The notes: generated by a model from the sequence alone, not told the origin. A DNA stretch of 64,000 nt from Dehalococcoidia bacterium (GCA_965226805.1 CBDDDW010000019.1:31400-95399); one strand, 5' to 3'. Numbered from the stretch's first letter, positions 26,262 to 64,000 are shown. Program-made: numbers and translations.

Positions 26262-26411
26262 CGCTGTCGAAATCTTGTTGACAAGGTACTAGGTCCCAAA
26301 AACTGGACGACAGCCAAGAGCTAGACGTACGGCCTTCTTCAAGCCGTGTGATCGCGGCGCTATAGCTGGGCTGAGATTATCTGAGTAGCTGAGCCTGGGA
26401 GGCCCCCTGAG

Positions 26412-26708: not shown

Positions 26709-26873
26709 GCTTGTTGGTTCTCCTCTCTTCTGATCCACCAGAGACCTAGCGATTGAACGGCCCCGGTTCCACTAATGTAAGGTGTCATTCAATGGGAGTC
26801 AAGATTCGATCAGCGCTACGTTGCGAATCTGGCCAATCGGAAAAATCGGCCTCCGCCGAATACTACCGACTTC

Positions 26874-30530: not shown

Positions 30531-30611
30531 TCGCGCCCTCAACATCGACGGCAGTAGAGCTATCGCTCTGGCTAGGGGGGGCAGACGGTCGCGCTCGTTG
30601 CCTGGACCCTA

Positions 30612-45504: not shown

Positions 45505-45590
45505 TTTAGACCATACACGGAATCAGACGACGCGGTAGCAGCAGACCTATGGCGATTCTGCTCTGAGGTTGCCGCTATGAGGGAGACGCC

Positions 45591-46340: not shown

Positions 46341-46343
46341 ACG

Positions 46344-46882
46344 ATGCCAGCATTACTGTGGCTACTCTCAATGGTCCCGCCTTCCGCGTTGTTCCTGACC
46401 GCAGGAATCTGGGTGGTCAGGAAGAAATACGGCGGTGTGCGTCACGTGCTCGGCGTGGCAGCGATTGTTGTGGGGCTATTGCTTGTTGCGATCACCCTGG
46501 TTGTGCTGCCGGGAATTGCCACAACTACCACGTCTGAAACCACGGTAACCACTTCCAGCTCCTCACATCTGGAGCATGAAGTCGTAGTCGGCAGTGTTGG
46601 CATCACGTTGGGCCGAGCAGTACTGCATCCCAATGAACGGGTCACCCTGTTCTATGTGGCAAGGGACACGGCTGAAGAGCTCGACGGGGCCGTCATGATA
46701 GACGCTGCAGAGATAGAGAGTTCGGACGGGCGCTCGTGGCTGGCCGACGGGCGTGGCGTCGTGCTCGATCGGCCTCCGCTTACCCTTGGATGGCTGACGT
46801 TTCCTGTGTCAGATGCTGCTCCGGGGAGCTTCAAAGTCACAGTGAACAGCGTTCAAGCCGACGGTGGCCATCTAAGGGGGAC
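46344..46882 (+). pseudogene. Membrane-anchored hypothetical protein truncated by IS
   Basis: Two TM helices, Thr/Ser linker, beta-rich domain; runs into the IS right end at 46883. Confidence 0.6.
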
Positions 46883-47811
46883 TGTTGGGTGTCAGCGGTT
46901 TTGGACAGTTCTGGGTCCGAGAGATTGGGGTGAAGAAGCTCCTGGTTTGAGGGTTTCTCTGACCTCCTGATTGTACCGCCTCCGCCGGTCAAAAGTCTCT
47001 CGCTGTACCTCCTTCCTCTGGGCTAGAATTGCCTCCAGACGGCCTTCCAGCACGTCAGCCGGAGTTACAACCCTGAGCGCCTGATGATATCTTCGGTAGT
47101 TGTAGAACTCGACGAAGTCCCGGATGGCCGCCTCCAGGTCTTCCACCACCTCGTATGGCACCTGGTTAATGTCGTCTTTCAGGGTTCGGTGATATCTCTC
47201 CAGCTTCCCGTTGGTCTGAGGGTGATAGGGTGCTGCCAGGACGTGGCGAATGCCCACCACCCGCATGTACTCGCGGAAGGCCCGCGATACATAACCTGAG
47301 CCATTATCTGAGAGGAGCTTGGTCCGATCCTCCAGAGGTACATCAGTCATACCAGTAGAGTCAACAGCTTCCTGGACCACCTCTATGAGGGAGTTGGCCG
47401 TCATGTCCCGTTGCACCTTCCAGGCCAAGATGAACCGGGAGTAGTCGTCCATCACCGTCACGAGGTAGTAGTAGCCCCATCCCACTACACGGAAGTAGGA
47501 GGCATCGGTGGCCCACAGCTGGTGGGGCCCTGTGGTCTTGTGCTGGTACTCTTTGCTCGCTGCCAACTGGTATTCGATCCGTTTCACCAGACCCTCCCGT
47601 CTCAGAATACGATAGACTGTGGAGGCGGAGACCGATAGGCCTCTGTGGTCGGTGAGCGAAGCCGCCAACTGCCGGCTTCGCCAGGTCGGCATCCCACGGG
47701 CTGCCGCCAGCACTACTGCCTCCTCTTCTGGACGCAGGCGATTCCAGGGCCTCTCAGTTCCTTCCGTACCCTCCCAACTACCCTGCCGGTGCCTCCACCT
47801 CCACCAATAAT
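46883..47811 (-). mobile_element. IS3/IS481-type element copy 2, 3' part
   Basis: Near-identical to 34546-35474; cut by IS1380 at 47812. Confidence 0.92.
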
Positions 47812-49554
47812 CCTGGATTTCCCAGATAGACCCAAGTGGTGATTGGCGTTCCTGTGATTACTATGAATATTCTGATTACTAAACGGATATAATGGGAGTC
47901 TATACATTATAATACACCCATGAATATAGGTTCTGGCTTCTGATTACGTAATCGTGTTGGAGGCACCTTATGGGTGACGACGAAAAGACCCCTCTCAAGC
48001 TCGACTTTGACTCCAAAGTTCGCGTGGAGTTTCGCGGTGCTACCATCACCTCAGACGCAGGACTGCTGGCGTGCAGAGAGCTTGATGACGCCCTAAGCCT
48101 GACCGACTCTGCCGACGAATTCCTCAAAGAGAGTCGAACGGGCAAAAACATCCTGCATCAGCTAATCCCACTGCTGAGACAGTCAGTCTACAGCCGCCTC
48201 GCTGGATACGACGACACCAATGATGCCGACCGCCTTTCCCAAGACCCAGCCCTGAGAGTAGTGGTAGGCTGGAAAGGCCCTGACAGGAACGCGGCCAGCA
48301 CCAGCGAGATGGGTAGGTTCGAGACGGAGTTGCTGACACAAAAGGAAAACCTCAAGGGCATTGAGCGGCTGAATGTCGAATGGATAAAACGTGCATTAGC
48401 CAAGACCGTACACAGGCGTATCATCCTGGACATCGACAGTTCGGAGAGTCCGGTGCATGGCGAGCAGGAGGAAGCAGCCTACAACGGCCACTTTGGATGC
48501 ATGTGCTATCACCCCTTGTTCTGCTTCAACCAGTTTGGAGATTGCGAAGGGGCGGTTCTCAGACCAGGCAACGTCCACAGCGCCGATGGCTGGAAGGAGT
48601 TCATCAATCCCATCGTCGAGCGCTACCTGAAGCTGGCGGTGAGGCTGCTGTTTCGAGCAGACGCTGCTTTTGCCAAGCCTGAGATTTACGAGTACCTGGA
48701 GACAAGGCATATCGGCTACGCCATAAGGCTTCCGGCGAACGAAGTGCTTCAGAAGGAAATAGCTCACCTGTTGGTACGGCCTACCGAGTGGCCCTCTCAA
48801 AAGCCCATCGTCTCGTATCACGACTTCGTTTATCAGGCCCAGAGTTGGAATGTTCCTCGAAGAGTAGTGGCCAAGGTGGAGTGGCATCAGGGAGAACTGT
48901 TCCCAAGAGTAGGCTTCATCGTAACCAACCTGAGCTATCCAACGAAGGGACTAGTCAGCTTCTACAATGGCAGAGGCACAGCAGAGCAGTGGATTAAAGA
49001 GGGGAAATACGCCCTCAATTGGACTCGGCTCTCGTGCCATAAGTTCGTGGCTAATCAGGTGAGGCTGTGGCTATTCATCCTGGCATACAATCTGGGCAAC
49101 TTCTTCAGAAGGCTGGCTCTGCCAGAAGCGATAAAGAGCTGGTCCCTGACAAGTATTCAGACGAGACTCATCAAGATAGGCGGGCGACTGGTGCGTCATG
49201 CGAGGAGGCTTGTGTTCCAGCTTGCCGAGGTGATGGTGACCAGGGAGATGTTCGATGAAATGCTGGAGCGGATAGGGAGACTTCGTTTCAATCCTGGATA
49301 GGAGCATGTGTCTGTTAGGGAATCGTGATCATATCGAGGCTGCCCTGAGCAAGGTGCGCGACTTGCAGCGTGAGGTTCGGTCTGAATAATCCGTTTAGAG
49401 CCTTTCCCAGTGGTTTGGAGACCCTGTTTCTCTAGATGAAGTGATATTAGCGCGGTTGGTGGCAGTTGACAACTTCAGCAGGCGATCTTATAGTCTGGAC
49501 TGTCTCAGGATGGTGTGTTTATGAAAGCACTGGATTCCATCTGGGAAATATCGG
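47812..49554 (+). mobile_element. IS1380-family element copy 2 (intact transposase 47970-49301)
   Basis: 1743 bp, inverted near-identical copy of 43762-45504; flanks ATAAT / CTGAG do not match. Confidence 0.95.
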
Positions 49555-49969
49555 CTGAGAGGAGCTTGGTCCGATCCTCCAGAGGTACATCAGTCATACC
49601 AGTAGAGTCAACAGCTTCCTGGACCACCTCTATGAGGGAGTTGGCCGTCATGTCCCGTTGCACCTTCCAGGCCAAGATGAACCGGGAGTAGTCGTCCATC
49701 ACCGTCACGAGGTAGTAGTAGCCCCATCCCACTACACGGAAGTAGGAGGCATCGGTGGCCCACAGCTGGTGGGGCCCTGTGGTCTTGTGCTGGTACTCTT
49801 TGCTCGCTGCCAACTGGTATTCGATCCGTTTCACCAGACCCTCCCGTCTCAGAATACGATAGACTGTGGAGGCGGAGACCGATAGGCCTCTGTGGTCGGT
49901 GAGCGAAGCCGCCAACTGCCGGCTTCGCCAGGTCGGCATCCCACGGGCTGCCGCCAGCACTACTGCCTC
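49555..49969 (-). mobile_element. Internal fragment of the IS3/IS481-type element
   Basis: Matches 47308-47722; fused in frame to the gene X N-terminus. Confidence 0.9.
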
Positions 49970-49975
49970 ATAGTG
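49958..49975. other. Left inversion junction, CACTAC-TGCCTC-ATAGTG
   Basis: IS sequence to the left, gene X to the right; core TGCCTC is the reverse complement of GAGGCA at 57764. Confidence 0.85.
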
Positions 49976-50713
49976 TTCGTCATACTCCGCGTCCGGCACA
50001 TCCGCCAGGCCGTAAGAGTAGTCCTCGCCATCAAGGAACTTTTGAAAACTCTCTGCGTCCTCGAATAGTGGCCGCACCTCATCCTCGGTTGGCACCTTCG
50101 AATAGAGGTGTTTTGCTCCGCTCATCATCCCGTAAGCGCCATCAGGCAAGGCAGTATTGCCTTTGGCCAGAAAGCTCTCTAACAGCCATTGGCCCAGGTC
50201 GTCGCCTTCTTCCAGCAATTCCCAGGTCATAACGTAATGCTGCTTGGCCGCTTCCACCGCAGCCGCTGTCTCTGAATCCAGGGGATACGGCGTCTCGATC
50301 CCTACCCGAATCTGGTTCCACCGCATTCGCCGGCCGAGAGCCTGTTCTCTCAGCAGCGATTTCAACTCCGCTATCAAGAACCTACCTTGGGTCCAGAAAT
50401 ACCGTTCCTCCGAGATCAGCTTGCGGTTAACCTGCTGGTGTAGAAAGAACAGGAACAGGACGTCCTTGTAAGCCTGGCGCACTGCTTTGTCGATTTCCTC
50501 CCGAGTGTGTCCCTTAAGCGTTTGCTTAACAGCCTCGGCTACCTGGTCTGTTAACCTGGGTATCGGCGCGGCGCTGTCCGGCTGGCTCTTCAGGTGATGG
50601 ATATATTCAAAAATGGTATTAAAGCCGTGTGCTTCTTGAAACCACAGCAGGATGGCCTGCTTGGGAGTCAGGCCAGTCTCCAGCTTCGCGACCCTTTGTA
50701 TGTTCTTGCTCAC
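49964..50713 (-). pseudogene. Hypothetical gene X, N-terminal 250 codons
   Basis: MSKNIQRVAKLE..LTPKQAILLW...; continues as 57770-58810 when the inversion is undone. Confidence 0.75.
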
Positions 50714-51147
50714 GAGTCAACCTCGGCGCTGAAACCTGTGTCGACGGGTTCAGCGTCGAACACCGACTCCGGCAGGGTTTTCTGACCATGCGCCGCTTCC
50801 AGTGCAGCTAGGCGTTCCTCCAACTCCCCGGTCTCCAAGAGTTTACCCGCCACTCCGACCAGGTAGCCCAGGGTGCGGGCCCGGGCGATGGAGTTTTCCA
50901 GACCCAGGGTGTCCAGGGAGGCAATCACTAGCAACCGCCGCAGGTCGCCCACTGTTTCCAGCCCATTGACCTCGTAGGCCCCGGACACCGCCACTTCACG
51001 TCGCCGTCTCAGTCCTCCCAAGCGCCGTGCCTCGGCCACATCTTCGGCATACTCGGGGGAGTGCCAGAAGCAGTGATCCCCGTCCTTTACGGGAGCCGCC
51101 CGGCACATCTGCCCATCCTCCTTCCGAAATGCGCACTGACGGCCCAT
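50710..51147 (-). CDS. Mobile-element hypothetical protein with N-terminal Cys/His motif
   Basis: C....DG..C.A......C.WH, RRLGG.RR, ELEERLAALE; GTGA coupling to gene X. Confidence 0.7.
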   Translation of the reverse strand: MGRQCAFRKEDGQMCRAAPVKDGDHCFWHSPEYAEDVAEARRLGGLRRRREVAVSGAYEVNGLETVGDLRRLLVIASLDTLGLENSIARARTLGYLVGVAGKLLETGELEERLAALEAAHGQKTLPESVFDAEPVDTGFSAEVDS

Positions 51148-51259
51148 TACCTGTGATTACCTCTGCTAGTTGACCAGTTGGTAGTCAGATGCAACAGAGC
51201 AAAAGGCAGGCTCCATTGAGAAACCTGCCTCAAGCAAATGAAATTATTCAAACCAGCGC

Positions 51260-51715
51260 TCAGGCTTCTGTGGTTGCCACTTGGACCCCATTCGATGTGT
51301 GCCCTTCTGGACACTGCTCTGCAGGTGCGCCCACCGGCGCCGTGAAACTCTTCTGGCAAGCGTCGCAGTAGAGTCTCACTTCTCCTTCCTCGACGCCCTT
51401 TTGATTTGGCACTCGCCGGAACCCAGCGGTGGGCGTTTGCTCCCCAGTCTCCGTTTCTTCCGATGCGTCGCCCTCGGGCTCCTCCGCTTCGCTGGGGGCG
51501 CCGCCGGCCTCGACGCTCCAAAAGGCCCAACCGTTGCAAGCCTTGTTGGTGATGGCGGTACCCGCCGATGAGGGACTCTTGAACTCTCTCCCGTCGGCCA
51601 GCCGGTACTTGACCTTCCCGTCCTCTCCGGCTATCACCTCGGCTTTGTATTCCTCCTTCTTGTATTTGGCAATCAGCTTCGTACCCGGTTCCAGGTTGCG
51701 GTCCTCGATGGCCAT
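51260..51715 (-). CDS. RAMA-like domain protein with C-terminal Zn ribbon
   Basis: L.A.YK...Y.AEV..DG...DG.EF.SPS.AG..I....NGW.FW, then C..C..F......CP.GH; GGAGG RBS. Confidence 0.7.
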   Translation of the reverse strand: MAIEDRNLEPGTKLIAKYKKEEYKAEVIAGEDGKVKYRLADGREFKSPSSAGTAITNKACNGWAFWSVEAGGAPSEAEEPEGDASEETETGEQTPTAGFRRVPNQKGVEEGEVRLYCDACQKSFTAPVGAPAEQCPEGHTSNGVQVATTEA

Positions 51716-51829
51716 TTGCCACCTCCTCACGTTTAGAAGATGGTATATACCTCACTCTGTCTTCGCCGGAAGTAAAGGGATATCGGCAAAGTGGAGGTAG
51801 CTGACCAATGTTCTCTTGGAGACGACGGT

Positions 51830-51847
51830 CACTACGTCGCCATAGTG
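51830..51847. other. Palindromic site CACTAC-GTCGCC-ATAGTG
   Basis: Intergenic copy of the motif seen at the inversion junctions and at 58819. Confidence 0.7.
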
Positions 51848-51866
51848 TTCGCTCCAGCTTCACCTA

Positions 51867-53123
51867 TCACTGGTTCTCCTTCGTGGCCTGCTCCCCGGTG
51901 AAAGACTCCCACCGCTTGACCGCCACATCAACGTACTGAGGCTCGCGTTCCAACGCATAGCAGACCCGACCAAGCTTTTCCGCCGCGATCAGCTGAGTGC
52001 CGCTGCCCAAGAAGGGCTCGTAGCAGAGGTCCCCAACCTCGGTGTGGTACTCGATTGGCCGCAAGAAGAGTTCCAACGGTTTCTGGGTAGGATGGATGTT
52101 CATGCTGGAACCCTGCTGGTCCAGCTGCCAGATGGTCCTCTCGTTAGCCGGGGGCTTCTTAGAGGGTTGGTGGCCTTCAACCCAGCCGTAGAAACATGGT
52201 TCGTGGGCCCACAGATAATGGCTATGAGTCAGTACCCCACGGGCCTTGGCCCAGATTATTTGCTGATGCACCAACAAACCGCTCTCCCGCCAGGCCTGCT
52301 CCACCAAGGCCTGCCTACGGTAGGCGTGCCACTGATAGATGGCTGAGTTTGGCTTAAGGTGTTCCAGGCTCAATGTCAAGAACTTTCGGTAGAACTCCAC
52401 CGACGCCTCTGGGTCCACGTATTCGTCCCAGTGCTTGTCTTTGCTCGGCTTGCCCTGGTTACCCTTCGAGGCTGGATGGTTGCCGCCCGTGTAGTCCACA
52501 AGATATGGCGGGTCCGTCGCCATCAATGAAGCTTTCTCCCCGTTCATCAATCGCCCTACGTCGCCACTGTCAATGGAATCGCCACACAGGAGCCTGTGGT
52601 CGCCTAGCAGCCATAAATCGCCTGTACGAGCCACAGGGGTCGTCCGTGCGGCTTCCATTGCTTCATCCAGGTCGAATGTCTCTAAACGCTCACGTTTCTC
52701 CCTCGACTCCAGGCTCTTTAGATGCTTCTGGAGTTCATCCTCAGAGAAGCCGGTCAATGTGATGTCTACATCCGGTAGGTCCTTCAATTCACCCAAGAGC
52801 CGGGCCAGGAGCTCTTGGTCCCAACTTCCGGAGATTTTGTTGAGGGCCAGGTTCAACAGATGAGCTTGCTCCTCGGGTAGGTCCACCAGAACCACGGGCA
52901 CTTGCTTCAGTCCGAGCTTCCTGGCTGCAAGCAGGCGCTGGTGGCCGCCTATTACCACCTTGTCCTCCCTCCGGGCGATGATTGGGTCGATGAGCCCGAA
53001 CTCTCTTATGGACCGGGTCAGCGACTCCAACTCCTCGTCGCTTATGCGCCTCGGGTTGGCTGGGTCGGGACGCAGGTCGCCGATGGGCAGGTGGGTGATT
53101 TCTAGCTCTTGGATTTGTTGCAC
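51867..53123 (-). CDS. ParB N-terminal domain + N4/N6 DNA methyltransferase
   Basis: NPR, SIREFG..DPI, GGHQRL; GDLWLLG.HRLLCGDS, TDPPY, HPTQKP, EPFLGSG. Confidence 0.92.
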   Translation of the reverse strand: MQQIQELEITHLPIGDLRPDPANPRRISDEELESLTRSIREFGLIDPIIARREDKVVIGGHQRLLAARKLGLKQVPVVLVDLPEEQAHLLNLALNKISGSWDQELLARLLGELKDLPDVDITLTGFSEDELQKHLKSLESREKRERLETFDLDEAMEAARTTPVARTGDLWLLGDHRLLCGDSIDSGDVGRLMNGEKASLMATDPPYLVDYTGGNHPASKGNQGKPSKDKHWDEYVDPEASVEFYRKFLTLSLEHLKPNSAIYQWHAYRRQALVEQAWRESGLLVHQQIIWAKARGVLTHSHYLWAHEPCFYGWVEGHQPSKKPPANERTIWQLDQQGSSMNIHPTQKPLELFLRPIEYHTEVGDLCYEPFLGSGTQLIAAEKLGRVCYALEREPQYVDVAVKRWESFTGEQATKENQ

Positions 53124-53165
53124 GGCTCTACCTCGCTTTGTCGTTTCCTTTCCCAGCCTCGACAC

Positions 53166-53273
53166 AGTGACGGGAGTGACGCAATGAACCCCCTTTTTCA
53201 CAAACATCCCTTACAAAGAGTGAATTGAAAATAGTTTGTGAAATTGACCCCTCGCTGCGTCACTTATGTCACT
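53166..53273. other. Candidate replication origin of the primase element
   Basis: AGTGACG x2 facing inverted TGCGTCACT and TGTCACT across an AT-rich spacer at the primase 3' end. Confidence 0.45.
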
Positions 53274-55680
53274 GGTTGGCTTTCAATCCAATCCCCAGAA
53301 AATAGCGTTTCCCATTCGAAGATACGGAGTCTCCGAATCGCTCCCTGATGCGCGTGCCGAAGGAGCGGGACCCCAACCTGTGGCGCTCCAGGATTCCTTG
53401 CTCCTTGGACCAGCGTTGGTATTCGGAGAAAAGGTGCCCCGGCTCCGCCCTAACGCCGTCGGCCACCACGCAACAGTCCGCGACGAAGCCGTCCAGTTCG
53501 TCGTTGTCCTTTCTGTAGGCTTGGGTGGCGGTCATTACCGCCGAAGGGGGCGCTAGGCCAACCAGTCGCCAATTCAGTGCTCCCTGTACTCCCCAGTTGA
53601 GTATCCCCGGCAACTCTTCTAGCAACTTGAAGGGAAGCCCTTTGTCCGCATCATCCCCCGTAAACTGCTCATTGAACGGCAGCACTCGTACTCTACGCCA
53701 GAACCCATAAGAGTCGTCCCTCACTCGAGGCAAGTGGTTCACCGCCAGCCAGAACTTGGCCACTGGCTCGTAGGTGAAGGATTCGCTATACAGAAAACGT
53801 GCGGTGATGGGATCTCCTCCGGTCAACGCCTTAATGCGAGCCTCGTTCAACCGTGTGGACTCGTTAGTCTCTGAGGAAGTCACAAGTCTTCTCCCTGCCA
53901 TCGAGGCTAGGTCGTTGGTCAATGAAGGTCTTTGCTGTAGCTCTAGTACCGTGAATGGAATGTTCATGGCATAGTCCCCTAGCACGTTTCTCAACATGTC
54001 CAAGAACACGCTTTTGCCGTTGGACCCTGTGCCGTGGCAGAGGAATAGAACCTGTTCCCGAACCGAACCCGTCAGGGAGTACCCCAGGGCCCGCTGCACA
54101 AACCCAATAAGTTCTCCGTCACGCTGGAACACCTGGTGAAGAAATTGCTGCCATCTCGGACACTCTGCCTTCACGTCGTATTGCACCGGCACCTGCATCG
54201 TAAGCCGGTCGTCGGGGTGCCCGGAACGTATCATTCCAGTACGCAAGTCCACTACTCCGTTGGCCACGCCAAGCAGGTAGGGGTCGGGGTCCCAGGTCAT
54301 ACCTGAGTCGGCTATTGGGTGTTCGCTACGGGCCAGGGCAAGACAAGCATCCAATCTCTGGCGTGATTCAGACCTTACAGCAGAGCTGGCGGTCTTACCG
54401 CGCAAATCCAGGTCTTCGATATCCAATGCGGTCCGGTAGCGAACACGGGCTGCTTTCTTGGCCAGACGGCGTACCTCGCCATCAGAATCAGGCGCCCACC
54501 GGTGCTCTTCCCAGATGAGCCACCGGTTTCTGGCATGGTCGAAGCGCAGGATATGGCCGTAGAGGGCGGCGAATAATTCAGCGTTGCCGGCGTCAGTCAA
54601 AGGAAACGGGCCGTTCTTGTCTTTAGGGTTGAGACTTTGGCCATTTTTTGAGAAGGTCAGGCCCAGCGCCACCTTCCACTCCTGCCAGCCCCTCGGCTCC
54701 GTTTCGGCATGAAAACACTTGCCAGCGTAGGGCCCGTCGGGCAGCTTTTGCCCTACGCCGCACTCGAATGGATGACACTCGTCATAATGGAATGGGCACT
54801 TTTCCACGTGGTACCAGGTCACGCCGTTCCCATCCAGCGGCTGTGTCCTGTACTCGATGTGCCGGGATTGGAGCAATTCCTCTAGTAAAGGTGTTGACCC
54901 ATTAAATATGGAGCCATCTTTAGGTAAATTAGCTTCTGGTTGCGATTGTTCGGCTGCAAGTTCGGCCAGCAATTCCTCGCTGATTACTGCTAACTGCTGA
55001 GGAACTGACTCCAATTGGGACCGCCGGTGGGGCCTATCCGTTAGAAAGTCACCCTTGACCTTCATGCTGCCGATGAGCCCGGCGAGGCGCGCTGCGTTGC
55101 AGACGGTGGTGTCAATGTGGACGGCCTCGTTGTTGAATCGAGTTGCCAGCGATACCAGAACCCCTTGAACCAATTCCAGGGAGGACGGATCGTTGGGCAA
55201 GCTGATGGGATAGAGGAGATACCACCCGTTGCCAGACATGGCGACGATAGGTTGGGGCCAGTCTTTGTTGTCTAGGAAGGACACAACCTCGTCTAACACC
55301 AGTCGTGCTGCTTGGCGTTCTTCCTCAGTGCTGCTGATGCCAGAGGGCCGGTACGGGTCGATATCTATGAATAGCGAGCGCCGTCTTATCACGTCGACAT
55401 CGGCGGAGGTGGTCTCTGCCTTGTCGGCGATTCGGTTGGAGGCCCGCGCCATAAGGGCCGGGTTCACAGGGTTCAGTGTAAAATATAGATTGGCCTTGCC
55501 GTCCCACTTGGCAGCAGATTCGGCTAGTGATTCCGGGCTATCGAAGTAGCCGGAGGCGGTGTGGCCGTATTTGTTATACTTGGGAATGCGAACTTCGCGG
55601 ACGTCCCCGGGCCGCCACAGCAGCTCGACAAAGCGCAGGATGTCTACAGTGACGCTTTCAAACTGAGGCTTGCCAGTCAC
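53269..55680 (-). CDS. P4-family phage/plasmid primase-helicase with N-terminal primpol-like domain
   Basis: FIDID, SGNG..L; D5-N TDAGNA..F, NGVVDL.TG; SF3 GTGSNGKS, IK.LTGGD.ITARFL, WRR. Confidence 0.92.
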   Translation of the reverse strand: MTGKPQFESVTVDILRFVELLWRPGDVREVRIPKYNKYGHTASGYFDSPESLAESAAKWDGKANLYFTLNPVNPALMARASNRIADKAETTSADVDVIRRRSLFIDIDPYRPSGISSTEEERQAARLVLDEVVSFLDNKDWPQPIVAMSGNGWYLLYPISLPNDPSSLELVQGVLVSLATRFNNEAVHIDTTVCNAARLAGLIGSMKVKGDFLTDRPHRRSQLESVPQQLAVISEELLAELAAEQSQPEANLPKDGSIFNGSTPLLEELLQSRHIEYRTQPLDGNGVTWYHVEKCPFHYDECHPFECGVGQKLPDGPYAGKCFHAETEPRGWQEWKVALGLTFSKNGQSLNPKDKNGPFPLTDAGNAELFAALYGHILRFDHARNRWLIWEEHRWAPDSDGEVRRLAKKAARVRYRTALDIEDLDLRGKTASSAVRSESRQRLDACLALARSEHPIADSGMTWDPDPYLLGVANGVVDLRTGMIRSGHPDDRLTMQVPVQYDVKAECPRWQQFLHQVFQRDGELIGFVQRALGYSLTGSVREQVLFLCHGTGSNGKSVFLDMLRNVLGDYAMNIPFTVLELQQRPSLTNDLASMAGRRLVTSSETNESTRLNEARIKALTGGDPITARFLYSESFTYEPVAKFWLAVNHLPRVRDDSYGFWRRVRVLPFNEQFTGDDADKGLPFKLLEELPGILNWGVQGALNWRLVGLAPPSAVMTATQAYRKDNDELDGFVADCCVVADGVRAEPGHLFSEYQRWSKEQGILERHRLGSRSFGTRIRERFGDSVSSNGKRYFLGIGLKANQ

Positions 55681-55985
55681 GGTTTCTTTCCAGAGCCGCG
55701 GCCTGCCGCAATTTCAAGCGTCCTGGAGACGGTGTTGTAGTTTAGTTCTCCACGGATGCCCGTGGAGGTATTGACTACAGCAGGGAACCGGTACTCTATC
55801 AGCACTTTCGCCTTCTTGCCTTCCGGCTCAACCTCCGTGTGAACGGTGATCTGTTTCACCAGCATCCGCACCACCTCCTGCTTCTGAGTATCATCCAGAC
55901 CGTCATCCAGCCTGCTGCGAAGCTCTCGCAATAAGTCAGGTTCCAGCGGCTTCTGATGCTCTGACGCATGGCAATCTGGAATGCT
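55677..55985 (-). pseudogene. Large serine recombinase C-terminal remnant
   Basis: LL.ELR.RL......KQEVVR.LVKQITV......V.IEY.F; catalytic domain absent. Confidence 0.6.
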
Positions 55986-56203
55986 TCAAACTGTGATTTC
56001 AGTTGATCCCATGCGCCAGGCAACCCACTTTCGATGGACCGCATTTCCGACGCAGAGTTGGACCCGTCCTCTCCCAGGTATACCTTGATCAGGTAGTCGC
56101 AGGCGCCGCAGCAGACGAATTCAATCGGACAGCGCTTGTCTCTCATGATGCGGTCACGGGCACCTTGAACCAATCTCCGCTCCTTTCGGGATATCCGTTC
56201 CAT
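55986..56203 (-). pseudogene. Hypothetical ORF N-terminus joined out of frame to the recombinase remnant
   Basis: GGAGG RBS, TAGATG coupling to the upstream ORF, CxxC-like motif; boundary approximate. Confidence 0.35.
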
Positions 56204-56719
56204 CTACGCAACCTCCTGCGGCTGGGCCGCCACCCCCGCCTTGGTCAACGTGTACTGGTCGGGAAAGCCCTGGACAAAGGCCACAAAGGACTCCTTACTT
56301 TGGTGGTGCATCGACAAGCCTTGATACGGCTGCCCACGCCAATATGGAGGTACAAATTCCGTTTTCACGCCCGATACCACACATTCGGCCTCCACACCCA
56401 CAAAGTCGGTGGGCCCTTGGCCTACGGCGATAATCTCCCAACGTCCAGAGTCTTCTTCCCCGGTGTCCTCGGCCTTGCTCTTCCAGTTCTGCGAGCCGCC
56501 GTAAGGATGGAACCGGCCTTCATCATCCTGACGATCAGGAGGGTGAATCGATTTCAAGGCATCGATCAGGATCGGTATGACGTCCTCGATGGGTTCGAAA
56601 CCGGCCAATCCGGCCACATCGGTCAAGTAAAGAACGTAACCTTTCGTGGCGGCAGAAGAAGGCCGACCCACCTGACTTCTTTTAGTGTGTGACTTCTCTG
56701 ATGCGGGCAAGTCCGTCAC
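56204..56719 (-). CDS. Hypothetical protein
   Basis: 171-aa ORF co-oriented with and coupled to the island genes. Confidence 0.55.
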   Translation of the reverse strand: MTDLPASEKSHTKRSQVGRPSSAATKGYVLYLTDVAGLAGFEPIEDVIPILIDALKSIHPPDRQDDEGRFHPYGGSQNWKSKAEDTGEEDSGRWEIIAVGQGPTDFVGVEAECVVSGVKTEFVPPYWRGQPYQGLSMHHQSKESFVAFVQGFPDQYTLTKAGVAAQPQEVA

Positions 56720-57064
56720 CTTCCATAAGGAAGGCGACGCCCGAAGTGTTAAGCGGCTAAGCAGCCCAAGCTACTGTGTAAGCAGCCCAGGAGCGGGGTA
56801 CACGATGGGGGATGATAACAGGAGACGTTTGGAGTTGAGGGATATGGAGCCTACTCCACCTCCCCGTCCAGAGCACGACATTACCGATCTCAGGGGCGGA
56901 GTCCAGTGTTCCAGCCAGACTTAGAGGTGTGTTGTCACCTTAGGGCGATTGCTAGACTGCGCTCATAATACCAGCAGGTTTGGTCCGTCACCAGCTCCTC
57001 ACGCGGCAGGTCTCACAGGCATGTGTGCCCGTTGGGCAATCAGCCAAAGTAACCCTCCTGAGTG

Positions 57065-57769
57065 TGCAGGGTGTCAGCGCAATTGGACACTATTGAGGCC
57101 TAGAAAACCGAAGAGGTTGGGGGTGGTAGAGGCTCCTTCAGAGGGGTAGATTAACCCTAAGTGAAAGGAGTCATTGATGACCCAGGTAGAGGATCAGGCC
57201 AGCCAAGCTGAGGAGCGAAGCCAGGAGACACGAAGCTTCGTGCGTCAGGTCCGTGCAGCGACCCGCCGTAAGTATACCCCTGAAGAGAAGATCCGCATCG
57301 TCTTGGAGGGGTTCAGACGGGAGACTACCGTTAATGACCTGTGCCGACGGGAAGGAATCAAACCCCACTTCTACTACGCCTGGACGAAGGGGTTCATGGA
57401 AGCTGGGAAGGAGAGGTTGACTCGGGACAGTGTGCGTGATGCGACCCGGCAAGAGATAGAGCAGCTCAAGCGGGAGAACAGAGAACTGAAGCAGCTGGTG
57501 GGTGAGTTGTCCCTGGAGTTGCACCGCTTCAAAAAAACAGCTCTGCCGCCCCTACACGGCAACGGCACCGTCGCATGAGCGTAGTGGAACAATCGAAGGT
57601 CGTGGCTGAGGTGGAGCGACATGGTAGAGGGAAGAACAGGCGACTCAGGGAGCTTGGCATTTCCAGGAGCACGTATTATTGGTGGAGGTGGAGGCACCGG
57701 CAGGGTAGTTGGGAGGGTACGGAAGGAACTGAGAGGCCCTGGAATCGCCTGCGTCCAGAAGAGGAGGCA
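57065..57769 (+). mobile_element. IS3/IS481-type element 5' part (orfA 57174-57578 and orfB start)
   Basis: Near-identical to 33936-34640; identity ends at GAGGCA 57769. Confidence 0.92.
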
Positions 57770-58810
57770 ATAGTGGAAGCCCTCAAGTGCCTGATCCCGG
57801 CTGGCCTTGTCGTGGACCTGCCTACCGTGCCCCACCAGTTCCTGAGAGAGGCGCCATTGGTTGACGGCGACTGGATCGACAACTACATGGTGGAGTTGGC
57901 CGAGTGGGGCGCGAGAATAAGGGAGAGGGAATTCCTGCTGGAGGAACCCGAAGACAACCACCCTATGGCCTGGCACGGGATTATCGACCCGAAGGATGGG
58001 TCCGAAGTCGACGCTGCGGTAGCGATAAAACTATGGCAACAGACCAGGAAACACTTGGCTGGATTTCCCGGCCGCACCAGGGTAATAGACGAGCGGCAAT
58101 ACCTGAGCTTCGCCGACTATCTGAAGTGGCGGGGTCGTCGTGCCAAAGGAGACTTGAAGTCCGCCATGCGCACGGGCCTGGTGGTGTCCACATGGAACCA
58201 GTGGGTTGAGGAGCATGGCTGCGAAGGTGCGGCATTCTTGGCCGGAACGGAAGTGGCAAAGCTCAGTTGCTACCTTGATGGCTATCGATACCGCGTCTGT
58301 CAGGATGCCGGGGAGTTGGCGGAAGAAGTAAGCCGGCGTGAGTCGTTGCTAGAATCTGTAAAGGTTTGGGAACCAGACAGCAGTAATGATGAGCGATTCC
58401 GTCAGCGGGTTGAACACTGGAAGATATCGGCCCTAGGCTTTCTTCCGGAGATATACATTCTGAGCCGAGCAATTAACTCAATCAGCCAACGGTACTTTGA
58501 AGGGCAGGACCCTCTGTTCTCCGAAGTGTCTGATGGGTTTGGTCAACTGTTGGCCTTGGTGGAGAAATTAGTCCATATTTACAACGAGGCCTTGGCGGGG
58601 GACATTGAACGCTCGGAAAGGCTGTTAATGGAGACGGGAGACGGGCAAGATGAATCTCCACTCACGATAGACCTGGCTGGATTGGTTGAGACCGTCCAAG
58701 GGTCTGCCAGAGAGCAGGTTGCCTTCTTGGTGGACATGGCAAAAGCCGACGCGCTGGATCTACTTGGCGAGACCCGTCAAGCGTTCGAGTTGGTAGACCG
58801 TCACGTTTGA
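57770..58810 (+). pseudogene. Hypothetical gene X, C-terminal 346 codons
   Basis: Open frame IVEALKCLIP...VDRHV fused in frame to IS orfB. Confidence 0.75.
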
Positions 58811-58818
58811 ACTTCAGA

Positions 58819-58836
58819 CACTATGCGCGAATAGTG
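58819..58836. other. Palindromic site CACTAT-GCGCGA-ATAGTG
   Basis: Perfect arms 8 nt after the gene X stop. Confidence 0.7.
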
Positions 58837-59242
58837 TGTGTGGCCCCTGGCTTTTTGTCGGCTGGGAAGTGGCGCCCAAGTTTCTCTTGGGATAAGATTG
58901 TCACCACCCGACTGTATGTCGTAATCGAGTCTGCCTGGACAATGACCTCTGCCAATGTCAACTCAATGCTACGATTGTGTTGCGACGTTGAAGAACCTGG
59001 GAACTGTCGGTTCAGCTGACGCTCTGAGGGAGTTCGAGTCCCTCGCTGTGGGCCTAAGTGGATAGTAGGTGGAACCATCTTCGAGATGTGGCTGGGGGCG
59101 TTGTGATCCTTGGCACAGCGATCCTTGCGGGGAGTTCGAGTCTCTGACGGTGGGGCTCAGGGGGCTTTTGATGTGTCCAGACCAAGACATGCCCGGCTAA
59201 TGGACGAAAACGAGAGGCTCATTATGGCGGGATGTCAGCGTT

Positions 59243-60388
59243 TCAGGTTGCACGTATTTTGCTTTGAACGAGAACATCAAGAATTCGGCCAGTTGATGGT
59301 CGCGACGGGGTGGTGAGGCTCGGGAGGTTTTGCAGGTCTGCATCTGAGTTAGCCACCAAGAATTGTTTTGACTCCCACGCTACCAGGGCATTTAGTTCCT
59401 GAACGATGTCAAAAGAGATGCTCCCTGAACGTAATCTGTAGGTTTTGGGCGCCAGCACGCAGGATAGTTGGGGAGACAGCGGATAGTAAAAGGCGAGTTC
59501 TTTAGTTTCGCTGCCATCTCCGGTACCCAAGAGGTTAACTACCGGTTGGTCTGCCGTAATAAACCCAAGGTCACATCCATTCTCCTCGAAGACAATGTCA
59601 AATTCCTTTCTATCTACAAAAAGACTAGTCGTGTGTCTGCCAAATGGGTTTACAATACGTCAGCGCTCGACGTGGCCCCCCGGTCTGCCTCCTCTCCCTA
59701 TGGGAGAGGATTGAGGTGAGGGTGAGACCGGGGTTCGCGGGGAGGACCTCCTCATATCAGCATTGTAATGCTATATACGAGACACTAGACTAGCTCCCAC
59801 ATTCTCGGCACCTATGTAGCTGATTATATTCCTGAGTCGATCAAAAGCGTGATCAGGAAACTCTTCAACCAGGGCTTCTCCAATCGCTTCGCGACCAGGT
59901 TCGGTACGGAAATACTGATGGGCAATGAAGTGGAAAAACATTATCGACTCTTCATAACTATTCAGGAAGTCAGTCCGCTTTTCGCGCAACGCTGCGAGGA
60001 TGGGCAAGGCGCATTCTTCTGTTTTGGAATGCAACATTTCTTCTGCATCAATGACAAGTCCTTCAATAAACCTTCTATCCTGGTCTGCTGCTCCACCATT
60101 GTTTTGAATTAGTTCGTTTGCCTGAGAGATACGCGCCCAAGTAGCAACGAGTTTTCGGTGAGAGGCCCTTAACGCTGCGTGGCCGGTCTGTTCAATGAAA
60201 AGTTCGAGAAAGCGCACATCAGTTTGTGTAATTACGGGCAACTTATAAGTATGCCGGGCTACCATTACGTTCACAGGGTTGGATGGGGGAAGTATCTCCC
60301 CGTCTCTTGAGAAATGTACAAAACCGCGTTGGTCTTGCCATGCTTCAAGATAATGGCGCCATACTGTGTGCTGTCTGTCAGTGGGCAT
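59243..60388 (-). pseudogene. DUF4238-like protein interrupted by a MITE
   Basis: QH.VW..YL..W N-terminus, QYFRT, FITADQPV; removing 59628-59792 restores GASLFVDRKEF in frame. Confidence 0.75.
59628..59790 (+). mobile_element. 163-bp IS630-derived MITE carrying a class C REP hairpin
   Basis: TA duplication; right end encodes CNAIYETLD* like the IS630 transposase end CKAIYETLD*; IRs GTCGTGTGTCT / GTCTAGTGTCT. Confidence 0.85.
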
Positions 60389-60737: not shown

Positions 60738-61466
60738 TCACAGGGGAAGCGTCCGCCCTGCCTCCCACAGGAGTCGGCGACGCTGCTGCGCATCCGGCAT
60801 CGCCTTGGCCACTAGGCCCCAGAAGTCCGTCGAGTGGTTCTGATGGGTCAGGTGCGCCAACTCGTGGACGACGACGTATTCGATGAGGGCCTGCTCCAGC
60901 ATCAAGGTGCGCCAGTTGAAGCGCAGTGTACCGTCGGGTGCGCAGCTCCCCCAGCGTTGGCGCTGGTCGCGGACGAGTATCTGCGACTTTTCTCCGCGAC
61001 CGAGCCGGGGCCACCAGCGGTCAACAGCATTCGGCAGCCGCTCGGCAGCCCGGTCCCGATACCATCCGACGACTGCACGGCGAATCGGCTCGTAGCGTTC
61101 GAGGCCGCTCAGGGTCTTCGGTACTGTGACTCGGAAGCGCCAGTGGTCGAAGCGTACCATAGGCGAACGTATGTCCGCGGTATCGACGATCATGCTGACG
61201 TTGCGTCCCAAGTACGGCAGGGTCTCGCCGCTGACGAAGCGCTTCGGCGCGGCTTCCAGCATCTCCCCAGACGCATGGCTGAGGATCCAGGGCGCCCGCT
61301 TGCGAACGATGGCTCGCAGCTCGCTGTCCGGCGTCGTCATGGGAGCGGCAACCTGCACACCGCCGCCGTCCGTCGTGATCTGGACCGTCTTCTTACGCCT
61401 CTCGCTTCGACGGACCTCGTAGTCGATGGTCGTGTTGCCGAAGCGGATACGACCCCGTTCGTTCAC
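60738..61466 (-). CDS. M48/YgjP (DUF45) metallopeptidase associated with type I R-M
   Basis: F.SGE...YLG, WGSC, FNW, YVVVHELAH..H.NHS..FW. Confidence 0.92.
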   Translation of the reverse strand: MNERGRIRFGNTTIDYEVRRSERRKKTVQITTDGGGVQVAAPMTTPDSELRAIVRKRAPWILSHASGEMLEAAPKRFVSGETLPYLGRNVSMIVDTADIRSPMVRFDHWRFRVTVPKTLSGLERYEPIRRAVVGWYRDRAAERLPNAVDRWWPRLGRGEKSQILVRDQRQRWGSCAPDGTLRFNWRTLMLEQALIEYVVVHELAHLTHQNHSTDFWGLVAKAMPDAQQRRRLLWEAGRTLPL

Positions 61467-64000
61467 CACCCACTCCTCCGACGGGCCAACTCAACGATCC
61501 GATTCGCCAGATCCTCCAATCGATCCTCGGTGTAGTCGTCCGTGGGCCTGAGCTCCCGCTTGATGTCGCGGCGCATCTCCCGCAGGACCTCCAAATTCGA
61601 CTGCCAGTCGATAACGGCGTTGTGGTGGTTGACCACGGACTCGACCCTCCGTGCGACGTTCTTCGTCTCTTCGTCGAAGTGCGCCCGGTACGGAGTCTGC
61701 TCCTCGCCTATGGCCGAGTCGGTAGCTGGCTCATCTGAGAGGCCGTCGAGCAGTTCGTAGATGGCGAAGGACACCGGAGACAGGCCGTGCTCGGCGGCAA
61801 TGTCAGCTTCGCTCTGGGCGTGATGCCGTAGCAGAGCAAGGCGGCGGCATGCTTCCGCCGAGTCTATCAGCCGGTTCCGAAGGTCTTCGATGATGCGTGC
61901 AAGCTGCGCCGAGAGTTTCTCGAAGAACACGGGGTTGTCGGCCAAGCGGTCATGTATCTGAGCCCGGATCGCGTGCTCCATGATCGAGGCCCGTGCCTCG
62001 TCGTGCGGCAGCGCGGCGATCTTCTGCTCGAAGTCACCGTCGAGTATGGATACCGGCTTCATCAATTCGCGGACATTGGCGCTGATGCGCTCGTCCACCA
62101 GCCTCTTCACCTTCGCCCCGATCTCGGTCCAGTCCGCGTCGGCGTCCTCGCGAAGGAACTGAGCCCGGACGTAGGCCCGTATCTCCGTAAGCCGAGCGAG
62201 CCGGTCTGTGTAGTCCAGTGCTCGCGGGTCGGGCAGGAAGCGGTCCATGAGGAGGGAGAACCGGCGGTAGTCCGCGTTGAACCGCTCGAACAGATCGGCC
62301 TTGAAGTTGCCCTCGGTCGAGGCGTCGGGAGCGAAGACGCTGACGCACGCCCAGGTGTCACTCAGGTCGCGGCTCTTGAAGTGGGACTCCGCCTGGACGG
62401 CGGCCGCCTCGATGACCGGTGCCGGGTCCTCGTCCATCTCGCGCATCGTGTCCTGCACGTCCGGCCAATCGAACGTCGAGAGCGCATCCTCCAGGTCTCG
62501 CGAGACGCCGTGGTAGTCGATGACCAGGCCGTGGGTCTTGTCGGTGGGCACCCCGTCCTGCTCATGGGAGAAGCGCCGGTTCACCCGGGCGATAGCCTGG
62601 AGCAGCCCGTGTTCCCTCAGCGCCCGGTCCAGGTACAGCGCCTGCTCCACCGGCGCGTCGAAGCCAGTAAGCAGCATGTCTACCACGACGAGCACCTCCG
62701 GCTCCCCCTCCGGATCGACGAAGGCGTTGACGACCTGCTCCTGGTCGAGCTCGCGGGCCACCTTGAACTCCGGACCATCGTTGGGGGCAGCGGTGATGAC
62801 GGGATAGGCGCGCAGGCCGAAGCTGTTCAGGCGTTCCGCGTACCGCAGGGCGGCGGCCCGGCTCGGCGCGACGATCTGCGCCTTGAACCCGTTGGGCCGC
62901 ACCTTCCCCTTGAAGTGCTCGGCGATGTCCAGGGCGATCATCTCGATGCGCCGCTCCGCCTCGGCGACCGTCTCCTTGTTGGCGTAGCGGCGGCGAATCT
63001 GGGCCTGGACCGCGGGCGGCTCGTCACCAAACATGGCCTCGTACAGCCTGTCCAGGGTCTCCGGCCCCTCGACGGCGAGCTCGGGCAGCCGCGCCTCGTA
63101 CCAGATGGACACAGTTGCGCCGTCGGCCACTGACTGCGGAATGGTGTAGGTGTCGATGAGGGGACCGAAGCGCCCTATGGTGCTGCGCTTGAAGTCCTTT
63201 TCTATCGGCGTGCCGGTGAAGCCCACCATCACCGCGTTGGGCAGGGCTTTGGACATGCGCCCGCCGAGAATGCCGTACTGCGTGCGGTGGGCCTCGTCCA
63301 CCATGACGATGACGTTCTCCGAGGCGTTGAGCACGTCAAGCTCGCCCTCAGGGGCCGTCAACGCCTCCGCGAACTTCTGGATGGTCGTCATCACCGTACG
63401 GCTGCCGCCTTCCTTTAGGACGCCCTGCAAGTCGAGAGGGTCGCGTTGATCTGGCCTTTGCATCCGGCGGCGCGCTCGGCGTTCGGGCGGCTCAGGGCGC
63501 GACCGGTCCATCCTCTCCGGGGCCGGGAAGCCGCAGCGCTCAAAGGTGCCGGCGATCTGCCGGTCCAGCTGCCTGCGGTCGGTGACCACGACGATGGTAG
63601 GATTGCCTAAGCGGGGCTCGCGGCGCAGCTTGGTCGCCAGCCACAGCATCGTCAGCGACTTGCCCGATCCCTGCGTGTGCCAGACAACGCCTCCCCGCTC
63701 CTCCGGCTTGCGGCCCGATAGGAGGCGGTCCAGCGCCGCACGGACGGCTCGGTACTGCTGGTAACGGGGCAGCTTCTTCACCAGCCGCCCCCGCTCCGGC
63801 TCGTAGACCACGTAGTCGCGGAGAATGTCCAGCAGGGTCGCCGGGGACAGTAGGCCCACGATGAGCTGCGCCTGCCCCTGCGGCTCGACACGGAAGCGCC
63901 CCTGAACCTCATCCTCGGTGTACGGCAGCACCGACTTCCACTCGAAGTAGGCGTTCTCCGGAGCGCCGAGGGTGGCGTAGGCTGCGGCTGCCCCGCAGTG
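61463..64000 (-). CDS. hsdR: Type I restriction endonuclease subunit R (5' end outside window)
   Basis: RYQQY.AV, WHTQGSGKS, TDR..LD.Q, TTIQKF, DEAHR, GFTGTP, DMLLTGFD, LLQAIARVNR. Confidence 0.95.
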   Translation of the reverse strand, partial: HCGAAAAYATLGAPENAYFEWKSVLPYTEDEVQGRFRVEPQGQAQLIVGLLSPATLLDILRDYVVYEPERGRLVKKLPRYQQYRAVRAALDRLLSGRKPEERGGVVWHTQGSGKSLTMLWLATKLRREPRLGNPTIVVVTDRRQLDRQIAGTFERCGFPAPERMDRSRPEPPERRARRRMQRPDQRDPLDLQGVLKEGGSRTVMTTIQKFAEALTAPEGELDVLNASENVIVMVDEAHRTQYGILGGRMSKALPNAVMVGFTGTPIEKDFKRSTIGRFGPLIDTYTIPQSVADGATVSIWYEARLPELAVEGPETLDRLYEAMFGDEPPAVQAQIRRRYANKETVAEAERRIEMIALDIAEHFKGKVRPNGFKAQIVAPSRAAALRYAERLNSFGLRAYPVITAAPNDGPEFKVARELDQEQVVNAFVDPEGEPEVLVVVDMLLTGFDAPVEQALYLDRALREHGLLQAIARVNRRFSHEQDGVPTDKTHGLVIDYHGVSRDLEDALSTFDWPDVQDTMREMDEDPAPVIEAAAVQAESHFKSRDLSDTWACVSVFAPDASTEGNFKADLFERFNADYRRFSLLMDRFLPDPRALDYTDRLARLTEIRAYVRAQFLREDADADWTEIGAKVKRLVDERISANVRELMKPVSILDGDFEQKIAALPHDEARASIMEHAIRAQIHDRLADNPVFFEKLSAQLARIIEDLRNRLIDSAEACRRLALLRHHAQSEADIAAEHGLSPVSFAIYELLDGLSDEPATDSAIGEEQTPYRAHFDEETKNVARRVESVVNHHNAVIDWQSNLEVLREMRRDIKRELRPTDDYTEDRLEDLANRIVELARRRSGW

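Follow-up and report, generated by a model that had tools for sequence, protein, structure and literature searches.

A 64,000-nucleotide (nt) stretch of DNA from an uncultured Dehalococcoidia bacterium (GCA_965226805.1, CBDDDW010000019.1:31400-95399; G000:C19:31400-95399 in our numbering, hereafter the window) carries a small mobile island in which three copies of a short palindromic site, CACTAY-N6-RTAGTG, accompany a conserved group of genes. The genome containing the window (G000) is represented by an assembly of 3,362,935 bases in 30 contigs that is 89.6% complete. Read in the direction of its genes, the island runs from its left end through three small open reading frames (ORFs), a primase-helicase gene, a gene for a ParB_N-methylase fusion, site B, a RAMA-domain gene, ORF145, a gene that we call gene X and that contains site A, then site C and a conserved right block (Table 1). 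Gene X encodes a 596-amino-acid (aa) protein, and site A lies in the middle of the gene, spanning codons 247-252. The island ends are located at about 56863 and 59056, and gene direction corresponds to the minus strand within 49970-57763. No integrase, resolvase or transposase was found between the island ends, and Phage_integrase and Resolvase domains were also without a match elsewhere in the window. Likewise, searches for tRNA genes at the island ends were negative, and the right end merely resembles the 3' end of a tRNA.

Table 1. Features of the island and of the adjoining insertion sequence (IS) parts in the window, ordered by position
Feature	Position	Strand	Remarks
IS3-family element, 3' part of orfB (rve)	49555..49969	-	Interrupted at 49555 by DDE_Tnp_1_4 IS (47808-49556)
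Site A, hybrid junction 1	49958..49975	-	CACTAT-GAGGCA-GTAGTG; left arm and spacer of gene X, right arm of IS3-family element
Inverted segment, ~7.8 kb	49970..57763	.	From site A to IS pseudo-site
Gene X N-terminal half, 246 aa	49976..50713	-	Severed at site A by inversion
ORF145	50710..51147	-	N-terminus Cys/His-rich; no Pfam family; immediately upstream of gene X in all relatives
RAMA-domain protein	51260..51715	-	Similar to C-terminal domain of CcrM
TTTACTT, -35-like box of conserved RAMA promoter region	51770..51776	-	52 nt downstream of site B; promoter predicted from sequence
Site B	51829..51848	-	20-nt block ACACTATGGCGACGTAGTGA, 18 nt past methylase stop codon
ParB_N + N6_N4 DNA methyltransferase fusion	51867..53207	-	Pfam: ParB_N (residues 36-118) + N6_N4_Mtase
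D5_N / P4-type primase-helicase	53269..55680	-	Variable module; Prim-Pol instead in C6, L019, L041, L045
ORFs of 84, 115 and 171 aa without family, and conserved left block	55677..56863	-	Left island end ~56863
IS3-family element, left end, orfA and start of orfB	57065..57775	+	
Inversion junction 2	57764..57775	+	GAGGCA-ATAGTG; spacer common to both, right arm of gene X; IS GAAGAG replaces left arm
Gene X C-terminal half, 344 aa	57776..58810	+	
Site C	58818..58837	+	ACACTAT-GCGCGA-ATAGTGT, 7-bp arms, 8 nt past gene X stop codon
Conserved right block, ~220 nt	58838..59056	+	Terminates in tRNA-3'-like stretch GGGAGTTCGAGTCCCTCGCTGTGGGCC; right island end ~59056

The motif matches three times in the 64-kb window, beginning at 49958, 51830 and 58819, exactly where a preceding interpretation made from the sequence of the window alone (the sequence-only reading) had placed its three sites, and does not match in any of 100 dinucleotide shuffles. 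On the plus strand the sites read CACTAC-TGCCTC-ATAGTG (49958-49975), CACTAC-GTCGCC-ATAGTG (51830-51847) and CACTAT-GCGCGA-ATAGTG (58819-58836). In gene direction these become ACACTAT-GAGGCA-GTAGTG for the hybrid site A, ACACTAT-GGCGAC-GTAGTG for site B and ACACTAT-GCGCGA-ATAGTG for site C, such that all three share the direction of transcription, with B and C located 18 and 8 nt after stop codons. The whole G000 genome contains four strict sites, namely the three of the window and one at C6:5659, and all reside within island copies. The C6 site belongs to a second, partial copy (C6:4342-9321), which is 99% identical to the window island across the methylase, RAMA and ORF145 genes and the beginning of gene X, and it has the spacer of site B. 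A reversed control pattern has one match in the entire genome.

The gene X family, whose members are approximately 596 residues long, yielded 185 matches in metagenome assemblies, all named at most ‘hypothetical protein’. The organisms concerned are uncultured, the genomes searched are samples of their groups, and counts across relatives are not independent. Gene X is present in 4 of 401 genomes of a phylum sample and in 4 of 401 genomes of an order sample (G000, G716, G408 and G522). G408, with three island copies, and G522, with two, belong to other families of the order, yet their islands are 85-99% identical to that of the window. In G408, the nine strict sites correspond without exception to B, A and C of the three islands (spacers GGCGAC, GAGGCA and GCGCGA, respectively), and the four in G522 to B and C of its two islands, where the right arm of site A is CTAGTG. 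These sites confirm the reconstruction of an intact site A and the uninverted ancestral order, in which the three sites are co-oriented as had been proposed. The scan of the genome and of homologous islands that was suggested at the same time thus finds the motif limited to islands and conserved in position in all three genomes, where every strict site (4/4 in G000, 9/9 in G408 and 4/4 in G522) is inside an island.

Conservation extends to considerably more diverged islands. Site A is retained with the same spacer in L019, L020, L026, L029 and L030, whose gene X proteins are 62-71% identical to that of the window, and it occurs as the strict motif or a one-base variant in all ten covering loci with gene X identity of at least 62%. 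Site B is unchanged in L019 and L029, the contigs that cover it, and one-mismatch versions are found in L045 (CACTAT-GGCGAG-ATGGTG; gene X identity 51%), L028 (CACTAT-GGCCAG-ATGGTG; 35%) and L024 (CACTAT-TGCTGG-ATAGCG; 52%). In five diverged lineages, site B lies 17-30 nt past the stop codon of the ParB_N-methylase gene, and in the last three loci a conserved TTGACTT box, which precedes the RAMA gene and reads TTTACTT in the window, follows at 43-59 nt or more downstream. After the gene X stop codon, site C is absent in six of six loci (L019-L022, L024 and L025), and one variant occurs in L023; site C is specific to the window-type lineage. In the most distant gene X islands (25-39% identity; G294, G398 and G363), the strict motif is absent and no other repeated palindrome is present, and the strict sites in these genomes number zero in G294, zero in G363 and one in G398. 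No relatives were found among viral contigs.

The sequence-only reading had described the arms as conserved and the spacers as different. The first part holds for the left arm, (A)CACTAT, which is nearly invariant, and not for the right arm, which is seen as GTAGTG, ATAGTG, CTAGTG, ATGGTG and ATAGCG. The spacers do differ among the three sites, and each site keeps its own across relatives.

The islands themselves are mosaic. The replication module is either D5-type or Prim-Pol, and everything from the methylase to the right end is shared. Degenerate motifs with at most three mismatches were not found at the module boundaries of mosaic islands (14 matches, compared with 8.6 ± 3.1 in shuffles). 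The motif follows the methylase-RAMA-ORF145-gene X module, and neither the replication module nor a co-resident Xer-like integrase.

The sites are constrained at the nucleotide level. Between the window and L019, the 20-nt block of site B is 100% identical, whereas the surrounding intergenic region is about 55% identical and includes a 9-nt indel. Six gene X sequences, most of them 65-70% identical, were compared at the codon level. Outside site A, 22 of 82 degenerate codons with an invariant amino acid are also invariant as codons, as compared with four of five (CAC, GAG, GCA and GTG) in site A (binomial p = 0.02, calculated from sequences that are related and therefore non-independent). GCA accounts for 10.8% of Ala codons, and the Ile/Val/Leu codon of site A has the form xTA in 6/6 sequences. 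These observations bear on the explanation that the similarity among the sites is functionless, such that A merely encodes a conserved peptide (H-Y-E-A-I-V) and B and C arose by chance or hitch-hiking. The arms of A are indeed set in part by the His-Tyr and Ile/Val-Val codons, and one-mismatch versions persist in distant homologues with H-Y-x-x-[IVM]-V. However, the shuffles yield none, the control pattern implies about one site per genome, the non-coding site B is perfectly conserved amid diverged flanks, synonymous positions of A are constrained, and every genomic copy in three genomes resides within an island. We consider this explanation close to refuted.

The 10-12 codons directly after site A (window 57776-57830; gene X residues ~253-270) are hypervariable. 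Near-identical islands have two alleles of this segment, EALKCLIPAG and SAIKGVAKQG, and further versions exist in more distant relatives. Elsewhere in the protein, gene X of G522 in L040 has a 12-nt in-frame deletion (LVDG) and is otherwise 99% identical.

A second possibility is that the sites function as RNA hairpins in island transcripts, for example to stabilise 3' ends or to signal processing downstream of the methylase and gene X coding regions. Their co-orientation with transcription and the placement of B and C just past stop codons agree with this, as do the right-arm changes GTAGTG and ATGGTG, which preserve G-U pairs in the sense RNA, and folding energies of -7 to -12 kcal/mol. Yet these energies are modest and uneven, and there is no covariation. 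At the innermost arm pair all four combinations (T-A, C-G, C-A and T-G) are observed, which points to two CACTAY half-sites that are read on DNA and argues against a base-paired hairpin. Moreover, site A of L019 folds no better than shuffled sequences (z = +0.76), no U-tract is present, no Rfam family matched at the sites, and DNA joints that occur at the sites are left unexplained. Hairpin function is therefore very improbable.

The most direct view of such joints is provided by the window itself, wherein one site had been proposed to coincide with the breakpoint of an inversion. Homology to an IS3-family element stops at 49969 and at 57775, and the two portions are parts of one element. The intact copies of this IS3 family in G000 have GAGGCAGTAGTG at the joint position in 41 of 41 cases. 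The present joints are CACTAT-GAGGCA-GTAGTG and GAAGAG-GAGGCA-ATAGTG, and the gene X donor is CACTAT-GAGGCA-ATAGTG; this reconstructed site A is found letter for letter in the intact gene X of L020, L042, L043 and L044. The IS partner thus has the same spacer and right arm as the gene X site, and not its left arm, and the A/G difference at the joints segregates as a reciprocal exchange predicts. Together, the two joints and the 41 IS copies demonstrate a reciprocal inversion of about 7.8 kb with the exchange falling within the 6-bp GAGGCA or at its edges. The assembly contains a genuine inversion, with site A as its breakpoint and both reciprocal joints present.

Additional rearrangements at site A are evident among relatives. 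In L026, the C-terminal half of gene X begins at site A, and the sequence is unrelated from 3 nt upstream of it, following a host aldehyde-oxidase-type gene. L043 and L044 match the window type with 99-100% identity over approximately 1.4 kb through the last base of site A, then with about 75% identity for some 550 nt, and thereafter with 97-100% identity. The first 70-100 nt of this foreign tract after site A are also held in common by L041 and L042.

We also surveyed short homologues of gene X, namely 46 whose contigs reach at least 6 kb, taken from 120 listed of 236, with 74 on short contigs excluded. Nineteen of the 46 fragments are N-terminal, and 8 of these 19 end at residues 242-255, where about 0.2 ends are expected inside the six codons of site A. 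P0136 reads ...EHY-ARIV-CVAPGF..., corresponding to CACTAT followed by the spacer, right arm and right block of site C, and its tail equals the window frame from 58819 in 67 of 67 residues, which makes it an A×C fusion joined in the shared left arm; P0135 belongs to the same lineage (97% identity). The peptides of P0126 (HYEA-SGE-stop) and P0146 (HY-DE-stop) suggest losses of 2 nt and 1 nt, respectively, at the border of the spacer and right arm. P0148 switches partner after the His codon, P0147 is ambiguous, and P0153 and P0165 end 3-5 codons upstream of site A, P0165 by a nonsense codon. Since P0126, P0146, P0147 and P0148 are mutually 67-74% identical, they represent separate lineages and the events are independent. 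In addition, two C-terminal gene X fragments begin at Val252, the GTG of the right arm.

Boundaries of homology also coincide with C-like motifs. In G716, two 164-nt repeats that are 84% identical (L046:2555-2718 and L047:9520-9683) start exactly at such a motif and end in a stretch like the T-arm and acceptor 3' end of a tRNA, a layout that resembles site C with its right block despite a different sequence. Rearrangement joints hence cluster at the sites, with at least six independent events at site A, as anticipated by the earlier proposal that they are places of exchange or breakage.

The explanation that we favour, and whose prospects of being correct we regard as evenly balanced, is that a protein recognises these dyad sites and that the DNA is cut there and rejoined, at the borders of the arms and the spacer. 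A protein of the island family, or one that travels with it, would recognise the arms, above all (A)CACTAT, and breaks or exchanges would fall where the arms meet the 6-bp spacer, positions with which all observed joints are compatible. Outcomes observed in nature are reciprocal inversion with a spacer-matched look-alike half-site, as in the window, and fusion of A to C. Small deletions in site A, truncation at A and a one-sided foreign tract that starts exactly at A are further observed outcomes. That a protein cuts at the sites is probable, and either conservative recombination or nuclease cleavage with subsequent repair may be responsible. The small deletions and the conversion-like tract of variable length favour nuclease cleavage with repair, whereas conservative recombination is the better match for the reciprocal inversion, whose partner has the same spacer.

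The two functional suggestions made originally differ in how well they agree with these data. A binding or cleavage site for an island protein fits best, given that the motif tracks the methylase-RAMA-ORF145-gene X module. The alternative of orthogonal spacers that direct cassette exchange finds no support: the A×C fusion P0136 carries the C spacer, no structural variation begins at B, and module boundaries are motif-free.

Several observations weigh against cutting and rejoining by a dedicated protein. The islands compared show no rearrangement joint at site B, whose conservation is the deepest of the three, and the fixed place of B after the methylase and before the RAMA promoter looks more like that of a regulatory or loading site. 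The joints of P0126, P0135/P0136 and P0146-P0148 were read from protein sequences. Sites A and C have 8 nt of microhomology (ACACTATG), site A and the IS share 12 nt, and short repeated palindromes can serve as endpoints of deletions and inversions without a dedicated enzyme. Family searches of the island (56863-59056) detected no recombinase or nuclease family, and gene X has no recognisable fold, with no Foldseek match at E <= 0.001 for the full model (predicted local distance difference test score, pLDDT, 79) or the central domain (pLDDT 69). Finally, in Logan contigs from public sequencing runs the gene X joint (49970-57764) appears uninverted in two of four runs, with sides of 24 and 41 letters, alongside intact IS joints, and such contigs can neither separate strains nor reveal both orientations within one strain; none of those listed spans the window's own inversion joint.

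Some of these points are accommodated by pure binding sites, either an operator for RAMA or ORF145 or a parS-like loading site of the ParB_N-methylase, with the rearrangements being secondary consequences of short repeated palindromes or of replication being blocked by a tightly bound protein. This arrangement best accounts for the deep positional conservation of site B, which is directly 3' of the ParB_N gene in five lineages and 43-59 nt before the TTGACTT box. The motif in G716 that lies 14 nt before a homologous promoter of a tyrosine recombinase gene, and the tracking of the conserved methylase-to-gene X module, are similarly consistent with it. Fusions of a ParB-CTPase to an N6_N4 methylase are described in a preprint as phage-enriched and of unknown role (bioRxiv 10.1101/2025.10.10.680097). 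However, the independent joints and small deletions cluster within six codons beyond what microhomology of 8-12 nt usually yields. Moreover, Pfam searches found neither an HTH_ParB domain nor ParA in the island, the distance from site to promoter differs by a 9-nt indel, and sites A and C do not lie close to promoters. On balance we judge binding without cleavage to be unlikely, albeit a serious contender.

Alternatively, the sites might be the core sites of a classical tyrosine or serine recombinase that acts in trans, with the 6-bp spacer serving as the crossover region. The architecture of inverted arms around such a spacer fits, as does the reciprocal nature of the window inversion with a partner that has the entire spacer. 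Candidate enzymes are also at hand. An Xer-like tyrosine recombinase, often followed by a large serine recombinase, is present in G000 (C28:26312-30654), G716 and L026, and in ten copies in G398, and remnants of large serine recombinase genes adjoin the right end of the island in L043. In the order sample, all four genomes with gene X have the Xer-like integrase, as does a single one of the 397 that lack gene X (5/401 overall); however, these genomes share a mobilome, and so the association does not constitute independent evidence. The motif does not follow the integrase, since G457 has the recombinase and lacks gene X and has no sites, and G398 has ten copies and one site. The strict motif was not found near the recombinase copies of G000, G408 and G522, and in G716 one of six strict sites is upstream of a recombinase. 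The A×C fusion united unlike spacers, the small deletions (P0126 and P0146) and the variable-length tract are not products of conservative recombination, and the arms measure merely 6-7 bp. We view a trans-acting recombinase of this kind as improbable, and in its specific form, with the motif as the target of the Xer-like integrase, the proposal was rejected on the distribution seen in G457 and G398. Integration of the island through an attP within gene X, as in SSV1, was rejected as well, given that intact gene X sits in chromosomal contigs of Mb size.

The C28 cluster of G000 (26312-30654) encodes the Xer-like tyrosine recombinase, an XRE-type regulator, a 249-aa protein and the large serine recombinase. 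The promoter region of its recombinase (TTGACTTCC...CAGAGCGTG.ATAGT) is similar to that of the island RAMA gene. In L043, a truncated large serine recombinase ORF runs through the first of two tRNA-3'-like stretches into the island; in the window these stretches lie about 95 nt apart, at 59030-59056 and 59125-59150, with no complete tRNA gene.

If a protein does cut and rejoin DNA at the sites, the candidates are the ParB_N-methylase, RAMA, ORF145 and gene X, with the co-resident Xer-like or large serine recombinase being less likely. Gene X, ORF145 and the small ORFs have no family in Pfam, PHROGs, PADLOC or NCBIfam. With regard to a possible pac or cos site that the terminase of a helper phage (TerS for recognition, TerL for cleavage) might use, ORF145 has phage look-alikes, all of unknown function, and no terminase family was matched among the window proteins. 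A protein atlas offered nothing usable for gene X, and for ORF145 returned unnamed phage and Chloroflexota clusters. VIA-align comparisons gave generic helical-bundle matches for the full gene X model (best Z 10.8) and weak ones for its central domain (best Z 4.2). These comparisons with predicted structures do not establish that the fold is new, nor do they exclude a nuclease. An entirely new activity that cuts the site or exchanges strands there seems to us rather doubtful; it would be encoded by island genes of unknown fold (gene X and possibly ORF145) or be loaded by the ParB-CTPase-methylase at a parS-like site, and would spread the island and switch or diversify gene X at site A. In those parts of the literature that our search could access, no description of such a site was found.

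In how they appear to work, the sites are most like recombinase core sites or endonuclease targets, and we tentatively file them as short dyad-symmetric breakage and rejoining sites. Like loxP, FRT and dif, which have inverted arms around an asymmetric spacer of 6-8 bp, the island sites have arms of 6-7 bp around a 6-bp spacer at all three positions. Furthermore, one reciprocal inversion used a partner with the whole spacer, and a partner with one good arm is usable. However, the arms of those systems are 11-13 bp, and the island has no adjacent recombinase, joins sites with unlike spacers (A and C) and exhibits small deletions at the site. Targets of site-specific or homing endonucleases, for example HO at MAT or I-SceI-type sites, whose breaks are repaired by gene conversion or end joining, offer counterparts to the clustering of island breakpoints in one short site, the small deletions, the one-sided replacement tract extending about 70 to 550 nt from the site and the microhomology deletions between two sites. 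Homing endonuclease targets differ in that no nuclease family was recognised in the island, the three sites are in the element's own DNA, and their cleavage is presumed.

Other comparisons are looser. parS sites and KorB operators share with site B a palindrome just 3' of a gene with a ParB N-terminal (CTPase-fold) domain and share with the set of sites the occurrence of several copies, one within a coding region, but parS is a continuous 16-bp palindrome, whereas the island sites have a 6-6-6 layout with a variable spacer, HTH_ParB and ParA are lacking, and ParB_N is fused to a methylase. Shufflons and hsdS inversion systems similarly have a site inside a coding region, between conserved N-terminal and variable parts of a protein, but the island has neither inverted silent cassettes nor an adjacent recombinase, and the window inversion, whose partner is an IS element, is accidental in comparison. 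Integron attC sites are likewise imperfect palindromes just past stop codons, in one direction and with one arm better conserved, but they are 57-141 bp long with a GTTRRRY core, whereas the island sites are 18-20 bp without this core and one is inside a gene; the mobilome integrase scores 45.6 bits against the integron integrase model TIGR02249, whose cut-off is 265.

Three more candidate functions were rejected. The sites are not operators of a C protein (C-boxes), as the module has no HTH_3 gene or restriction gene and the site is downstream of the methylase. They are not intrinsic terminators, as G-C pairs make up 2 of the 6-7 pairs in the stems and site B is not followed by a T-run. They are not targets of a diversity-generating retroelement, as no reverse transcriptase domain is present in the window or the island copies and the substitutions after site A affect all bases.

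A number of neighbouring features were also recorded. A terminator-like hairpin (GGCAGG...CCTGCC and a T-run in gene direction) is located 3' of the RAMA gene at 51204-51229 and is retained in L045 despite deletion of the RAMA gene there. In the C6 island, a 655-aa Prim-Pol-type replication protein replaces the D5-type primase, and gene X is interrupted after about 66 codons by a DDE_Tnp_1_4 IS; with gene X split in the window, both gene X copies of G000 are thus broken. The G000 genome is very rich in IS elements, with 41 intact IS3-family copies and approximately 17 copies of the 1.75-kb DDE_Tnp_1_4 element, and in the IS-rich stretch of the window (44000-49556) one IS is inserted in another at 47808-49556. 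Just to the right of the island, at 60738-63931, a gene for a YgjP-like metallopeptidase is accompanied by one for a Type I restriction R subunit. A roughly 170-bp repeat at 59622-59796 recurs at some 35 genomic places with 99-100% identity and may be a miniature mobile element; it adjoins a DUF4238 gene (59771-60388).

Our findings define a conserved cis element together with a four-gene module (ParB_N-methylase, RAMA, ORF145 and gene X), both belonging to a small mobile island that had not been described before. This island has no integrase, spans 6-9 kb, is present in 2-3 copies per genome and is 85-99% identical across different families of Chloroflexota, with sponge-metagenome-labelled runs among its holders. 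The palindrome that is fixed immediately after their gene offers a candidate DNA target for ParB_N-methylase fusions, which are common in phages and are not known to have a role or a DNA target. If it is true that an island protein cuts or recombines this 18-bp site, that protein could represent a new family of site-specific enzyme.

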